Origin: Candidatus Bathyarchaeota archaeon
GTDB taxonomy: Archaea; Thermoproteota; Bathyarchaeia; Bathyarchaeales; Bathycorpusculaceae
Length of the DNA: 64,000 bases
Direction: 5' to 3'
Assembly (NCBI GenBank): GCA_963715865.1
Contig: OY970280.1
Location: 384,001 to 448,000, forward strand
The notes beneath the pieces are model-generated. The model saw only the letters and a program-made list of their open reading frames with translations, did no database searches and was not told the origin of the DNA. Numbering within the stretch: position 1 is the first letter of the stretch; the number at the start of each line of letters is the position of its first letter. This document shows, piece by piece, positions 35,893-42,125 of the stretch. The position numbers and the translations under genes were made by a program.

Positions 35893-36216
35893 TTGAAGAA
35901 CAGTTACATCATCATATTAGTTACCAGCAAAGATAAGCAGGAAGCAGAAAAAATAACGCAGTCGCTTTTGAAGGAACATTTGATTGCTTGCGCAAACATC
36001 GTTAATCCAGTCACATCATTTTTTCATTGGTCTGGCAAAATCGACAGGGCTGAGGAATGCTTAATCGTTATGAAATCACGCATGGACCTGTTTACTCAAG
36101 TTGCTGAGCGCGTGAAGGGCTTGCATAGTTATGAGATTCCAGAGATTCTTGCGCTTCCGATTGTTGAGGGCTCGAAGGCTTATTTGGATTGGATGAGTAG
36201 TGTGCTCAAGCCTTAA
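35893..36216 (+). CDS. cutA: Divalent-cation tolerance protein CutA
   Basis: LIACANI, SFFHW.G, HSYEIPEI, YLDW. Confidence 0.93.
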   Translation: MKNSYIIILVTSKDKQEAEKITQSLLKEHLIACANIVNPVTSFFHWSGKIDRAEECLIVMKSRMDLFTQVAERVKGLHSYEIPEILALPIVEGSKAYLDWMSSVLKP

Positions 36217-36289
36217 GTACATTTTTGTACCGATAAGCCTTAAATAGTACATTGGCGTATGCTTCTGAACCATACGGAGAATAAACAAA

Positions 36290-36340
36290 ATGGGGAATCG
36301 CCTTTGGTTCACAAGCATTAACCGAAACCAAACCAGCTAA
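36290..36340 (+). promoter_or_regulatory. 16-codon Trp-containing leader ORF ([16 protein letters not shown]) overlapping the trpE frame
   Basis: ATG 36290 lies 9 nt after GGAGA; CTT TGG at 36302-36307; stop TAA at 36338-36340. Confidence 0.5.
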
Positions 36341-37706
36341 CCCCCTAAAAATCAAAAAAATCACAATCACACAACAACCCCTCGAAATATTCTCAAAACT
36401 CCAAAAACAATACCAAACAACCTACCTTTTAGAATCCATCGAAGGACCAAAAAAACTCGCACAATACTCATTCATCGGATTCGACCCAAAAATAACCATC
36501 CAAGCTAAAAACAAAAAAGCCCAAATCAAAAACGAGAGAAACGGGGAAATAATTAAAGAGGTAACAAGCGACCCACTGCAACTTATAGAAGAACTGCTTA
36601 AAGGCGACTCTGTTCCCACTCGTAAGTTTCGATTCGTCGGCGGAGCTGTTGGCTATATTTCTTACGATGCCGTTCGTTACTGGGAGAAACTGCCCCTGAA
36701 GTGTCAAGCTGACCTTGACTTCCCTGACTTGGAGATGGGCATATTTGACGACGGCTTAATTTTCAACCACATAAAAAAACAAGCCTTCTACTACTACCGC
36801 AACGAGAACCGCTTGGCTGAAGTTGAAAACCTGCTCAGGCAACCTGTTGATTTTGACGAATTATCTTTCACTCAACCAAAAGTTAACACTAAAAAAGAAC
36901 ACTATGAACAGGCGGTAGAGAAAGCAAAAGAGTACATAACCGCAGGCGACATTTTCCAAGTTGTTCTCTCCAAACGCTACCAGTTCCAAATAAAAGGCAA
37001 CCTAATCCCATTCTACCAGTCGCTGAGAAGCATCAACCCTTCACCCTACATGTACTTCTACAAGTCAGGCGAGCGGCAAATCGTTGGCTCTAGCCCAGAA
37101 ATGCTCGTCCGAGTTGAAAACAGAAAGGTAGAAACCTTCCCAATTGCAGGCACCAAGCCAATTGCTGACAAACCAGGCGAAAACAAAAAGATAGCTAGAG
37201 AATTGCTTGATGACCCTAAAGAGCGGGCTGAACACGTTATGCTCGTTGACTTAGCACGCAACGATATCGGAAGAATTTCTAAGTTTGGAAGCGTTCACGT
37301 GCCCGAATTCATGAAGGTTCACCAGTACAGCCACGTACAACACATCGTCTCACAAGTTGTTGGCGAACTTAAAGAAAACCTTCAAAGCTACGATGCGCTA
37401 AGGGCTGTTTTTCCTGCTGGCACGGTTTCTGGAGCACCAAAAGTACGCGCCATGGAAATCATTGACGAACTGGAACCTGCAAGGCGTGGACCATATGCGG
37501 GTGCTGTAGGCTACTTCTCATACAATGGCAATGCAGACTTTGCCATAACCATCCGCACACTCTTCGCCGATAAGAACCAAGCTTACATCCAAGCTGGCGC
37601 AGGAATCGTGGCTGATTCCGTGCCTGAGCGAGAGTGGTTCGAAACTGACCATAAGGCAAAAGCTCTGATGCAGGCGCTTGAGCAGGCTGGAGGTGCAAAA
37701 CCATGA
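36290..37706 (+). CDS. trpE: Anthranilate synthase component I; start codon out of frame (frameshift required)
   Basis: The frame is open from 36285 to 37706 ([64 protein letters not shown]) with no ATG/GTG/TTG before 36729. Confidence 0.9.
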
Positions 37707-38293
37707 AGGTAGTGGTAATTGATAATTATGATTCGTTCGTTTACAACCTTGTCCAGTACATAGGTGAACTTGGCGCAGAAACCATAGTTTACAGAAACAA
37801 CCAAGTTAACCTAAAACAGTTAACCCAGCTTAAACCCGACAGAATCGTGATATCGCCAGGACCAGGCACACCTGAAGATGTCAAGTATTTTGGCGTTTGC
37901 ACATCAATTCTGCAGACTATGAGCCGAACAACGCCAACTTTAGGCGTTTGCCTAGGTCATCAAGGAATAATCAACGCGTTCGGCGGAAAAATCATCCATG
38001 CAAAAAGGCTCATGCATGGAAAGACTTGCACCATAAAACATGACCAAAAAGGCATTTTCACAGGTGTCCGTAATCCTTTCACTGCGACAAGGTATCATTC
38101 GCTTGCTGGAGAACGGTGCTCCATTCCTTCGTGCTTAGAAATTACTGCAGAATGCGTTGATGACGGAGAAATCATGGGCGTTCGCCATGTTGAGTACCCG
38201 ATTGATGGCGTACAATTTCATCCTGAATCAATTCTCTGCGAGGACGGGAAAGTTATAATTAAAAACTTCTTGGATGGCAGACGACGGCAATGA
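37703..38293 (+). CDS. trpG: Anthranilate synthase component II (glutamine amidotransferase)
   Basis: IDNYDSF, SPGPG, GVCLGHQ, RYHSL, QFHPES. Confidence 0.95.
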   Translation: MKVVVIDNYDSFVYNLVQYIGELGAETIVYRNNQVNLKQLTQLKPDRIVISPGPGTPEDVKYFGVCTSILQTMSRTTPTLGVCLGHQGIINAFGGKIIHAKRLMHGKTCTIKHDQKGIFTGVRNPFTATRYHSLAGERCSIPSCLEITAECVDDGEIMGVRHVEYPIDGVQFHPESILCEDGKVIIKNFLDGRRRQ

Positions 38294-39348
38294 TTAGGGA
38301 AGGCATCCAGAAACTCATCGAAGGCTACAGCCTAACAAGCGATGAATCAGGAGAAATAATGAGGGAAGTTATGTCGGGAAAAGCAACAAACTCGCAAACT
38401 GCCGCTTTTCTAACAGCCTTACGAATGAAGGGTGAAGCGGTTGAGGAACTCATCGCCTTTGCATCCGTTATGAGAGAGCATAGCAGCCAAATACATCCCC
38501 ACGTACATAGCCGCCTAGTCGATACTTGCGGGACAGGCGGAGACAAAATAAAAACCTTCAACGTAAGCACAGCAGCAGCCTTCGTCATTGCCGGAGCCGG
38601 CGTCGCAGTTGCTAAACATGGAAACAGGGCTGTAACCAGCAAAAGTGGAAGCGCCGACGTATTAGAAGAGCTCGGTCTTAACCTACATTTGGAACCTGAA
38701 GCAGTTGAAGGCATCATAGAAAAAGTCGGCATAGGCTTCATGTTTGCCCCAGCTTTTCACCCTGCTATGAAATTTGCCGCTGAGCCAAGACGCGAGATAG
38801 GCATTCGCACAGTATTCAACGTTCTTGGACCATTAACGAATCCAGCATGCGCTAATGCTCAACTGCTCGGCGTTTACGACCCAAAACTGATCAGCCCATT
38901 GGCTTATGCTCTAAAGCGGCTTGGATGCGAAGAAGCAATGGTTGTTCATGGATTAGACGGGCTAGACGAGATATCAACTGTAGGAAAAACAGTAATTGCG
39001 CACCTAAAGAAAGGCGAAGTAACAAAGTTAGAAACTATTCCAAGCGATTTCGGCGTAAAAAAAGCAAGAATAACTGACTTACAAATGTCAACGCCTGAGG
39101 AAAGCGCAGAAATCCTCTTTAAAATTCTAAATGGCAACGTTGCTGATGACCCGAAAGCTGAGCTTGTGCTCGTCAATAGCGCTGCAGGAATCATTGTGGG
39201 TGGGAAAGCAGAAGATTTCAAAGGCGGCATGGAAATAGCAAGAGAATCAATCGAAAGCGGAGCTGCCTACGCTAAGCTTAAGATGTTGGTTAAGGCTTCA
39301 GGCGGAAGCCTCTCAAAACTAGAGGAGTTCGAAGCGCAATATGAGTGA
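38290..39348 (+). CDS. trpD: Anthranilate phosphoribosyltransferase
   Basis: DTCGTGGD, NVST, KHGNR, SGSAD, GLDEI. Confidence 0.96.
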   Translation: MIREGIQKLIEGYSLTSDESGEIMREVMSGKATNSQTAAFLTALRMKGEAVEELIAFASVMREHSSQIHPHVHSRLVDTCGTGGDKIKTFNVSTAAAFVIAGAGVAVAKHGNRAVTSKSGSADVLEELGLNLHLEPEAVEGIIEKVGIGFMFAPAFHPAMKFAAEPRREIGIRTVFNVLGPLTNPACANAQLLGVYDPKLISPLAYALKRLGCEEAMVVHGLDGLDEISTVGKTVIAHLKKGEVTKLETIPSDFGVKKARITDLQMSTPEESAEILFKILNGNVADDPKAELVLVNSAAGIIVGGKAEDFKGGMEIARESIESGAAYAKLKMLVKASGGSLSKLEEFEAQYE

Positions 39349-40120
39349 CTTTCTGGATATGCTGGCGCATGATGCCAAAGAAACCATTAATAGCGGATAC
39401 TATGAAACGTTAAAAGCTACAGGAAGCATGCGCGTTAGTTTGAGGAAGGCAATTTTAGATAGCCAAGTTAATCCGGTCATAACTGAAATTAAAGCTGCTT
39501 CACCCTCAGCCGGTATAATCAGAAGAAACGTTAAACCAAGCATGATTGCGAAAGCCATGGAAAAAGGCGGAGCAGTTGGCATTTCAGTTCTAACTGAGCC
39601 AAAACACTTCAACGGCTCTCTAGAAGCGTTGGCTCAGGCACGAGAGGCTGTGAAACTTCCCATACTCATGAAAGACATAATCATTATTCCCGAGCAAATA
39701 GAAACTGCCTCACAATTAGGCGCCAATGCAGTCTTGCTAATTGAAGCTCTTTTTGAAAGAGGCTATTGCGAAACCAGCGTCGATAAAATGATAGCTTTTG
39801 CTCACGCAAGGGGCCTTGAGGTTTTGCTGGAAACACACACAGAAGAAGAATTCCAATCGGCTATTGAAACCAACGCTGACCTTGTTGGAATTAACAACCG
39901 AAACATCGCAACCCTAAAAATCGACTTAAGTACAACAAAGCGCATCCTTGAAAAACATAAGAATAATGGCAAAATGGTCATAAGTGAAAGCGGAATAAAC
40001 ACGCCAGCAGACATACGTTTTCTTCGTGAAAGTGGTGCATGCGCTTTCCTTGTCGGATCAGCCATCATGTTAACCGATAACATTGAAGAGAAAGTTAGGG
40101 AGTTTGTGAATGCAAAATGA
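39341..40120 (+). CDS. trpC: Indole-3-glycerol phosphate synthase
   Basis: EIK.ASPS, SVLTE, KD, GINNR, SESGI, LVGS. Confidence 0.94.
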
Positions 40121-41313
40121 AACTAAGCAATTACCCGATTGATGGAAAATACGGGAAATATGGCGGCCGTTTTGTTCCAGAAGTTCTGATGGCGGCGATT
40201 AAGGAGTTGGAAGAAGCCTACGAGCAAGCTCGAAAAGACCCGAATTTCCAGAAAGAGCTTGATTATTACCTTTCAGAGTTTGTGGGAAGACCAACACCGC
40301 TTTATTACGCTGAGAACTTAACGCAGAAACTAGGCGGCGCCAAAATTTACTTGAAGCGTGAAGACTTGACCCATGGAGGAGCACACAAAATAAACAACAC
40401 AATGGGGCAGGCGTTGTTGGCGAAGCGAATGGGCAAGAAACGTGTAATCGCCGAGACAGGAGCAGGCCAACACGGCGTAGCAACAGCAATAGCATGCGCT
40501 GCCTTAGGCTTGAAAGCTGAGGTTTACATGGGTACAGAAGACTGCGAACGGCAACGGCTTAACGTTTTTAGAATGAAGCTTCTAAACGCACAAGTGCATC
40601 CCGTAGAAACTGGCTCAAAAACCTTGAAGGATTCTATTAACGAAGCGTTTAGGGATTGGGTTACAAACCTTGAGAACACATACTACTTAATCGGCTCAGT
40701 AGTGGGCCCTCACTCCTATCCCATGATTGTTAGGGACTTCCAAAGCGTAATCGGCAAAGAACTCAAAGAACAATTCCAGAAAAAAGAAGGCCGACCGCCA
40801 GATGCACTTGTTGCTTGCGTAGGCGGCGGAAGCAACGCCATGGGCACCTTCTACCCATTCGAAGATGATTATGAAGTGAAGCTTTATGGTGTTGAAGCTG
40901 CAGGTCAAGGCTTAGAAACAGGCAAACACGCAGCCTCACTTGGCGCAGGAGCAGAAGGAGTCTTTCACGGCATGCTAACGTACGTTCTCCAAGACAGTAA
41001 CGGGCAAATACAGAACACAAGCAGCGTTTCAGCAGGCTTAGATTATCCTGGTGTTGGACCAGAACATTCCTTCTTAAAAACGTTCAAGAGAGCACAATAC
41101 ACTTCAGCCACAGATAAGGAAGCGGTGGAGGCTTTTCTCACCTTGTCCAGAGAGGAGGGCATTCTTCCTGCATTGGAATCCTCGCATGCAGTAGCTTACG
41201 CAATGAAGTTAGCCAAGCAGATGAAGAAGACGCAGTCAATCGTTGTCACATTGTCCGGACGAGGAGACAAAGACGTGGAAACCGTAGCAGACTACATAGG
41301 GGCAAAAATATGA
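40117..41313 (+). CDS. trpB: Tryptophan synthase beta chain (TrpB1 type)
   Basis: [42 protein letters not shown]. Confidence 0.97.
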
Positions 41314-42125
41314 ACGCTATAAACGAAGCATTCCAAAAAGCAAAGGCGCAGGGAAACGGCGCGCTCGTCGGCTACATTATGGCTGGAGACCCAAAGCCAG
41401 AACTGACACCGAAAATTGCTGATGCCCTAATCAAGGGCGGCGTAGACATTTTGGAGCTTGGGCTTCCCTTCTCTGACCCAATTGCTGATGGACCAACAAT
41501 TCAGGCTGCAAGCGTACGCGCGCTGGCTGCTGGAACAACGCCTGTTAAGGTGCTAGAAATTGCTAAGGAAATACGACAAAGCCATGATGTGCCAGTTGTA
41601 ATAATGACCTACTATAATCCTGTTTTCAGGATGGGGCTCGAGAGGTTTTTCGGTTTAGCTGAGAAATGCATGGTTGACGGAGTTATAGTTCCTGATTTAC
41701 CAGTTGAGGAAGCAGGTGACTACAAGAAAGCCGCAAGCAAATTTGGTGTAGACACAATTTTCCTAGCAGCACCTTCCACTTCCAATGAGCGGCTTGCAAG
41801 GATAGTTTGGTGCTCTTCAGGCTTTCTGTATCTTGTTTCGCATTTCGGGGTGACAGGAGCAAAAGCAACGATAGAAGATTCAACCATTCACTTAGTCAAG
41901 CGTGTTTTACCCTTCACATCCGGAAGAATTCCATTGGCGGTTGGGTTTGGCGTTTCGAAGCCTGAGCATGTTCAGCGCATTGTTGGGGCAGGAGCTGACG
42001 GCGTCATAGTTGGAAGCGCCTTCGTCAATCTAATTCAAAAGCATCGGGAAAAGATTGATGTTCTGCTAAATGAACTGCAAGCGACCGCTTGTAAATTAAA
42101 AGCGGCAACAAAAATCATCCAATAA
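41310..42125 (+). CDS. trpA: Tryptophan synthase alpha chain
   Basis: [36 protein letters not shown]. Confidence 0.96.

Follow-up and report, generated by a model that had tools for sequence, protein, structure and literature searches.

A conserved cassette that starts trpE out of frame in Bathyarchaeia: a candidate tryptophan-sensing +1 frameshift

The trpE gene and its out-of-frame start

We analysed a stretch of 64,000 nucleotides (positions 384,001 to 448,000 of contig OY970280.1, assembly GCA_963715865.1; hereafter the window, to which all positions refer unless stated otherwise) from an uncultured peat archaeon of the Bathyarchaeia whose genome is a single contig of 2.35 Mb, and examined how translation of trpE, encoding anthranilate synthase component I, could begin. 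The trpE frame is open on the forward strand from 36285 to 37706, 473 codons from stop to stop with the terminator at 37704–37706. A reading made earlier from the letters of the window (the sequence-only reading) had stated that this frame holds no ATG, GTG or TTG before 36729, and indeed the first such codon is TTG 36729. That the frame encodes TrpE is indicated by both Pfam domains, Anth_synt_I_N at residues 31–168 (E 1.9e-34) and Chorismate_bind at residues 204–457 (E 5.4e-99), by the trpEGDCBA operon in which it lies, and by an alignment with the solved Sulfolobus TrpE (PDB 1qdl_A; E 1e-104) that begins at residue 25 of the open frame. Because of the position of the first domain, a start at TTG 36729 would lose the whole conserved Anth_synt_I_N domain. 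The part of trpE upstream of this TTG is 49–88% identical in other loci, and the N-terminal domain is clearly under protein-level conservation.

The only start codon near trpE that is led by a Shine-Dalgarno (SD) sequence is ATG 36290, and it is out of frame: trpE lies in the +1 frame relative to it, and a TAA at 36282–36284 shuts the trpE frame immediately 5' of this ATG. As the sequence-only reading had described, the ATG opens a short leader that contains CTT TGG and ends at a TAA. The spacing between GGAG and ATG peaks at 8–11 nt genome-wide, and the leader is within this optimum; the 3' end of the 16S rRNA is GGAUCACCUCCU. The same reading had pointed out that a +1 slip from CUU to UUU would land in the trpE frame, which holds true, as TTT GGT occupies 36303–36308 in that frame (slip codon UUU at 36303–36305, next codon GGT at 36306–36308). 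The predicted shifted product is MGNRL followed by 466 residues, 471 amino acids in total. We refer to the SD sequence, the out-of-frame start and the NTT-TGG that follows it as the cassette. The features of the locus are collected in Table 1. The roughly 25 codons after the cassette (36309–36390) are A/C-rich, nearly G-free, of low complexity and poorly conserved, and form an N-terminal extension that the solved Sulfolobus TrpE lacks.

Table 1. Features of the trpE locus, in window coordinates (ORF, open reading frame)
Feature	Position	Strand	Basis or remarks
Shine-Dalgarno GGAG	36276–36279	+	10-nt spacer to the leader ATG; G enriched at −14 to −11 (94 loci)
Zero-frame leader ORF	36290–36340	+	ATG GGG AAT CGC CTT TGG TTC ... 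TAA (36338–36340), 16 codons
Internal SD-like GRGG (here GGGG)	36292–36295	+	6 bases 5' of the P-site CTT; candidate frameshift stimulator
Predicted shift heptamer CTT TGG T	36302–36308	+	CTT 36302–36304, TGG 36305–36307
trpE coding after the predicted shift (anthranilate synthase component I)	36306–37706	+	Pfam and 1qdl_A
trpG, trpD, trpC, trpB, trpA	37703–42125	+	ORFs, Pfam families, junction sequences
Promoter region	36217–36251	+	GTACA 36217–36221, GTAC 36227–36230, TATA-like TTAAATA 36240–36246, third GTACA 36247–36251

Conservation of the cassette upstream of trpE

We collected trpE loci from 40 relatives and 80 further species genomes, anchoring them on the conserved N-terminal domain; 96 distinct loci had enough upstream sequence. 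The closest records are Bathyarchaeia metagenome-assembled genomes (MAGs) from peat, bog, fen and soil. The cassette is kept in 94 of the 96 loci, far beyond chance, with an SD sequence, a start codon (92 ATG, 2 GTG) exactly four codons before NTT-TGG, and trpE in the +1 frame. Its consensus is ATG RGG NAT HRY NTT TGG C. Positions +2, +3, +5, +6, +9 and +14 to +18 (TTTGG) are invariant, and the information content collapses beyond +19: within the leader ORF conservation is confined to the first six codons, and the leaders, 7 to 34 codons long, are otherwise poorly conserved in sequence. The codon before TGG is CTT in 62 loci, ATT in 18, GTT in 12 and TTT in 2. The Phe codon that overlaps TGG in the trpE frame is TTT in all 94 loci, as compared with 42% TTT elsewhere in the same genes (926 TTT, 1,228 TTC); a TTC at this place would destroy the zero-frame TGG.

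In the second codon, position +4 is only ever G or A (69 and 25 loci, respectively), and this variation is non-synonymous in both frames, exchanging Gly for Arg in one and Trp for a stop in the other. In the 25 loci with AGG there is no G run, and a trpE-frame TGA overlaps the ATG, so that no upstream in-frame start is possible. The room for a shift is narrow, since the +1 frame opens only after the overlapping TGA. Between the upstream stop and 30 codons past the site, 53 of the 94 loci have no canonical in-frame start, and the remaining loci have only sporadic, non-conserved ones. Upstream in-frame ATGs at offsets of −7 and −12 to −26 codons occur sporadically in some relatives and were rejected as a general start; in the window they are blocked by TAA 36282–36284. 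When we compared the 5' ends of trpE in relatives for an in-frame ATG-GGA-ATC lacking CTT-TGG, as the sequence-only reading had suggested, we found the opposite. In one locus (L076) the zero-frame stop comes one codon past TGG.

The two loci that deviate from the pattern have both lost the TGG. L011, from the record of Candidatus Bathycorpusculum acidaminoxidans, reads ATG AGG AAC CAC CTT GAC... and continues in frame into TrpE as MRNHLDNQ..., and L038, from the long-read MAG record MFD01299.bin.2.99, reads ...CTT TGC AGC... and continues in frame as MGNRLCSTQ.... Since both read from the leader ATG straight into TrpE, they identify the leader ATG as the start. L011, with differences in several places, has the look of a genuine loss in evolution; L038 could be a sequencing deletion or homopolymer error. 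The two can be regarded as natural 'constitutive' versions. Three contigs with a Bathyarchaeia-type trpE and the cassette are filed as bacterial MAGs (L037, L052 and L206; Candidatus Acidoferrum, Limnocylindrales and Sulfotelmatobacter), labels that probably reflect binning contamination.

The cassette across Bathyarchaeia and upstream of trpS

The cassette is present in eight Bathyarchaeia families, that of the host included, and in about 100 related genomes at species level, whose TrpE proteins share as little as 43% identity. Candidatus Bathyarchaeum is one of the genomes with the cassette at trpE (L211). A loose motif search of 400 Bathyarchaeia genomes gave many recurring matches; we fetched 20 of these, from seven other families, and in 19 TrpE comes next in the +1 frame with 43–58% identity to the host TrpE. 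Leaders in other families include MGYSLW, MRDRVW and VGYRVW. Scanning one genome per prokaryote species with the exact pattern, we found that among the matches listed 71 of 121 have TrpE next to them in the +1 frame; the 50 listed matches that do not are due to chance, and most come from bacterial records in which the motif falls inside ordinary genes.

A strict pattern applied to 160 Thermoproteota genomes gave five matches outside the class, of which two lie before TrpE, two are due to chance and one precedes trpS. In this last case the +1 ORF has 363 residues and scores 227 bits against TIGR00233 (tryptophanyl-tRNA synthetase; cut-off 177); it has no nearby in-frame ATG, and an in-frame GTG stands just 5' of the TTT. 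In total, six trpS loci (L259–L263, L269) of the order to which Candidatus Culexarchaeum, Culexmicrobium and a Methanomethylicia MAG belong as named relatives carry ATG RGG GAT NNN NTT TGG with trpS in the +1 frame, one of them being a 48-residue fragment at a contig end. The form seen in Culexarchaeum and Methanomethylicia is ATG AGG GAT AGY GTT TGG, and most of the loci have no in-frame ATG. Two trpS leaders, MRDSVW and MRDNVW, are followed by an immediate stop, which stands directly past TGG in L262 and L269. In a sister family (L264–L267) trpS is preceded by ATG GGT GGT CGC GTT TGG together with an in-frame GTG. With the query used, no TrpE was found in five genomes that carry the trpS cassette.

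TrpE and tryptophanyl-tRNA synthetase (TrpRS) are unrelated proteins that have only their link to tryptophan in common. Finding the cassette upstream of trpS in a further archaeal class makes its own link to tryptophan stronger. Two genome-wide scans of the 2.35 Mb host genome revealed no second cassette. A look-alike at genome position 1258541 was rejected, as it is flanked by two transporter genes and the gene that follows it possesses a start codon. The host's own trpS begins with an ordinary in-frame ATG. By these searches the cassette is restricted to Trp-related genes.

A tryptophan-sensing +1 frameshift as the proposed mechanism

From the layout of the locus and its conservation we conclude with high confidence that trpE is subject to conserved, obligatory recoding at its start. 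The best-supported mechanism, which we consider probable, is a programmed +1 frameshift of the prfB type at NUU-UGG that would sense charged tRNA-Trp. Ribosomes would bind the SD sequence GGAG and initiate at ATG 36290 in a frame unable to yield TrpE, and after five codons they would hold peptidyl-tRNA-Leu on CUU in the P site with UGG, the single Trp codon, in the A site. With ample Trp-tRNA, UGG would be read, the nearby stop would release a 16-residue peptide, and TrpE would not be made. With Trp-tRNA in short supply, the A site would stay empty and the peptidyl-tRNA would re-pair one base forward on UUU, where its GAG anticodon would form G·U, A-U and G·U pairs; Gly-tRNA would then read GGU, and translation would go on in the trpE frame. 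The GRGG element, 6 bases 5' of the P-site codon, probably would push the ribosome forward, as in bacterial prfB. Via translational coupling, the shift would turn on the whole trpEGDCBA operon, which would follow trpE because trpG-D-C-B-A overlap one another.

Several properties of the cassette and of the host fit this scheme. The genome contains genes for tRNA-Leu(GAG) and tRNA-Gly(GCC). The slippery NTT-T is invariant, and with CTT in two-thirds of the loci (62/94) the P site is of the prfB type; the free choice of the first base of this codon is what one would expect of a site at which nothing but re-pairing on UUU counts. In GRGG, both G (as G·U) and A (as A-U) at +4 would keep the pairing with the U in CCUCC, the anti-SD, and its spacing of 6 nt to the P-site codon is one codon shorter than that from SD to start, reminiscent of the compressed spacing of prfB. 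Of all codons, only UGG relies on the operon's product for its decoding. In its passages on +1 shifting, a recoding review describes how at CUU_UGA_C of prfB and CUU_AGG_C of Ty1 (about 40% shifting) a slow A-site codon lets peptidyl-tRNA-Leu move +1, and it treats frameshifting at starved 'hungry' codons as established and slow A-site decoding as a general +1 trigger (PMC5009743). In human cells, according to a further paper, a lack of tryptophan induces ribosomes to shift frame at Trp codons (PMC13751296). No downstream stimulatory RNA structure was predicted (minimum free energy −15.4 kcal/mol, z −0.99), and the locus had no Rfam match at E ≤ 1. The slip had been put forward by the sequence-only reading; layout and conservation support it, and it is its exact site at NUU-UGG, together with the response to tryptophan, the role of GRGG and the coupling of the operon, that we infer from these features.

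Looking beyond trpE, we also think it likely, if with a little less assurance than the slip itself, that SD-AUG-GRGG-NAU-HRY-NUU-UGG is a portable cassette, a sense-codon +1 frameshift sensor that several archaeal classes have placed before trpE or trpS.

A number of observations weigh against a slip at NUU-UGG. The zero-frame TGG and the +1-frame TTT-GG are the same letters, so that only the invariance of T+16 and the link to Trp genes separate a zero-frame from a +1-frame reading of this stretch. In the variants with Ile (AUU) or Val (GUU), the first position pairs poorly once the tRNA moves onto UUU, and the SD-like element lies 6 nt from the P-site codon as opposed to 3 nt in E. coli prfB. 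In 9 of the 94 loci, and in several loci of other families, an in-frame ATG stands directly before TTT, and in lineages with ATG TTT GG direct initiation may occur beside the frameshift. ARAGORN found no tRNA-Trp gene in the host, with or without introns, and both the Trp response and the shifted product are deduced from sequence. In addition, A+8 is nearly invariant and T+9 (U+9) invariant, and the slip explains neither; an extended pairing of NAUC with GAUC of the 16S rRNA tail, for which a bulge would be needed, is an idea only.

Two of these points come with further observations. The ATG TTT GG arrangement arises where codons 4–5 are NAT GTT (L019, L021, L092, L093, L098, L105, L108, L109, L124 and L126), and in the NAT GTT loci the in-frame ATG lies 4 nt past the internal SD-like GAGG. 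ARAGORN returned 34 tRNA genes for the host genome without the intron option and 44 with it, some of the latter with implausible introns; over the whole genome it reported no tRNA-Trp, Phe, Tyr or Asp, and these tRNAs probably carry non-canonical introns.

Alternative explanations

The main rival, which we regard as unlikely, is a shift right after initiation: the ribosome would read AUG, skip R and continue with GGN AUH..., the protein would start M-G-I-A-F-G, and UGG would be a mere by-product of the Phe-Gly codons. It draws on the pattern of variation, which also counts against a slip further downstream. Variation falls at +7, +10 and +13, each the third base of a codon in the +1 frame, and is synonymous there; the +1 frame yields a conserved G-I-(A/V/T/M)-F-G with conservative changes, in the trpS cassette too, whereas replacements in the zero frame are radical (N/Y/D/H, followed by R/C/H/Y/S/N). 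Such a period of three is the signature expected of +1-frame translation upstream of the slip site. However, coding in the +1 frame leaves the invariance of T+16 unexplained, and the peptide lies outside the TrpE fold, followed by the poorly conserved A/C-rich linker. The peptide would also have to be common to two unrelated proteins linked only by tryptophan, with no Trp sensor on offer; the initiator tRNA is unable to re-pair on UGG or UGA, and both in-frame natural variants retain the zero-frame MRNHL or MGNRL.

Less likely still is a +1 shift at NUU-UGG that occurs at a fixed low rate, either setting TrpE output or correcting an old indel, with no regulation by Trp. Regulation cannot be shown by sequence alone, and the GTACA boxes of the promoter could carry all control by Trp. 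Yet the A-site codon is the one codon that depends on the product of the pathway, the cassette is also found on trpS in another class and nowhere else in the host genome, and slow decoding in the A site is described as a general +1 trigger in the review passages cited above (PMC5009743). Moreover, an in-frame start could take the place of a fixed-rate shift, a step that just 2 of the 96 loci have taken.

We give lower odds again to a non-canonical in-frame TrpE start at AUC 36297 (AUH in most relatives), with the leader acting as a separate modulating upstream ORF. In line with it, the +1-frame codon at +8 to +10 is ATC, ATA or ATT in 92 of the 94 loci. Such a start would, however, have its SD sequence 17 nt away, outside the 8–11 nt optimum, and the internal GRGG just 1 nt away, and the codon is GTT or GTC in L021, L076 and the f68 trpS loci. 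It also leaves unexplained the five-codon spacing, the invariance of T+16 and the presence of an out-of-frame ATG in every locus.

Lastly, the sequence-only reading had named as the simpler alternative an extra G in the GGGG run, by assembly error or mutation. On this view, with a recent mutation or an error, trpE would truly be in frame or be a pseudogene. Dropping one G would indeed yield the ordinary start ATG GGA ATC GCC TTT GGT, but 94 of 96 loci, whose assemblies and sequencing methods differ, show the same offset (about 100 genomes carry it), the 25 loci with AGG have no G run to miscount, independent contigs are free of indels at the site and the N-terminal domain is conserved as protein, so that this explanation is ruled out as far as sequence data can do so and keeps a negligible probability. 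Among the peat and wetland DNA runs listed, 14 hold about half of the sampled words of the locus stretch. Contigs of 352, 394 and 226 bases from three such runs span 36142–36493 and differ from the window by substitutions only; they have no insertion or deletion at 36278–36321 and retain GGGG, which upholds the four Gs at 36292–36295. A metatranscriptome contig of a relative (36287–36419) likewise has no indel in the cassette, with the caveat that contigs drop rare variants. All four compared runs (three DNA, one RNA) have C at 36308, giving the consensus heptamer CTT TGG C.

Two further candidates were rejected. Transcriptional slippage or RNA editing would have to act on runs no longer than GGGG and TTT, 25 of the 94 loci lack the G run, and the RNA contig is indel-free, albeit that this last point is weak. 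Re-initiation past the leader stop finds no start in the trpE frame before 36729.

Comparison with known systems

Although the trpE cassette would work like prfB and Ty1, it belongs to neither. It shares with prfB a short zero-frame ORF followed by a main ORF that lies in the +1 frame and has no start of its own, a P-site CUU that slips, or in the cassette would slip, onto UUU, a G-rich SD-like element just upstream (AGGGGG in prfB; a candidate stimulator in the cassette), and a negative-feedback logic in which decoding of the codon at the A site is slow when the product of the pathway is scarce. It differs in that the A-site codon of prfB is the stop codon UGA, read by RF2, prfB's own product, whereas that of the cassette is the sense codon UGG, which would be sensed via the supply of aminoacyl-tRNA. 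Furthermore, the shift takes place at codon 26 in prfB and would take place at codon 6 in the cassette, whose SD-like element lies 6 nt (3 nt in prfB) from the P-site codon and overlaps the start codon, and the cassette is archaeal and governs a biosynthetic operon or trpS. With Ty1 the likeness is in the seven-base site, the P-site CUU, the slow sense codon in the A site, the +1 Gly codon GGC and the decisive supply of a single aminoacyl-tRNA, going by the review's passages on that element (PMC5009743). In Ty1, however, a constitutively rare tRNA sets a fixed Gag:Pol ratio and there is no SD-like element, whereas the limiting tRNA of the cassette would rise and fall with the operon's own amino acid product.

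Attenuation at trpL (RF00513) and the bacterial trpS leaders resemble the cassette in having a short leader ORF with Trp codons that reads the charging of tRNA-Trp and raises output on starvation. The cassette is nevertheless no attenuator of the trpL type. Unlike trpL with its tandem pair, it has a single Trp codon, and by the fold z-score and the Rfam search it has no terminator or antiterminator hairpins; its downstream region is A/C-rich and G-poor across the 94 loci. Control by the cassette would be exerted through the reading frame during translation and not through termination of transcription, and trpE lacks a start codon. Antizyme is also an obligatory +1 shift that serves as a metabolite-responsive feedback switch, sensing polyamines, but it is eukaryotic and shifts at a stop codon, stimulated by polyamines and a pseudoknot.

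The trp operon and its promoter

Downstream of trpE, every trp gene start overlaps the end of the preceding gene, by four ATGA overlaps and one 8-base overlap at the trpD/trpC junction, and trpG-D-C-B-A probably follow the translation of trpE through coupling, judging from these junctions. Across the six Trp enzymes (36306–42125), Trp makes up only 4 of 1,942 residues, and TrpG, TrpD and TrpC have none. The low Trp content and the overlapping junctions fit an operon that is translated under Trp shortage. Upstream of trpE, on the same strand, lies cutA, as identified with Pfam.

The TATA-like motif of the promoter region recurs 46–54 nt 5' of the leader ATG, around −49, in 92 of 93 loci, and at least two GTAC motifs are present upstream in 64 of the 93 related loci. 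In Methanothermobacter, TrpY represses transcription of trpE through the TRP-box (TGTACA). The tandem GTACA boxes that flank the TATA box of trpE in the window resemble these methanogen operators, and they possibly form an operator for a Trp-responsive transcription factor. The sequence-only reading had seen no trpY-type repressor in the window, and we likewise identified no TrpY gene or other regulator gene for the GTACA boxes; the boxes themselves suggest that an additional layer of transcriptional control may exist. Unlike the TrpY system, this would at most be an extra layer and offers no alternative solution to the frame problem of trpE.

Implications

Leader-peptide attenuation and T-boxes are bacterial devices, and to our knowledge translation-level sensing of amino acids in archaea is largely unknown. 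If the proposed mechanism is true, the cassette would be a very compact sensor of about 35 nt and would play in archaea the part that attenuation and T-box control play in bacteria. We know of no earlier natural case in which starvation for a single amino acid switches on a biosynthetic operon by a change of frame at a sense codon, and the shift would rank with the first +1 frameshifts known from cellular genes of archaea. In the portions of the literature covered by our searches on tryptophan, trpE, archaea and recoding, including a genome-wide frameshift survey, frameshifting at trpE or trpS was not described. The recoding review mentions, in its pertinent sections, few candidate archaeal frameshifts and none of the kind of the trpE/trpS cassette (PMC5009743).

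For genome annotation, gene callers will truncate trpE to TTG 36729 (325 amino acids) or label it a pseudogene. This could lead to mis-scoring of tryptophan prototrophy in the many Bathyarchaeia genomes that bear the cassette, and likewise TrpRS in Culexarchaeia. Being short and self-contained, the cassette may also serve as a synthetic Trp-responsive switch.

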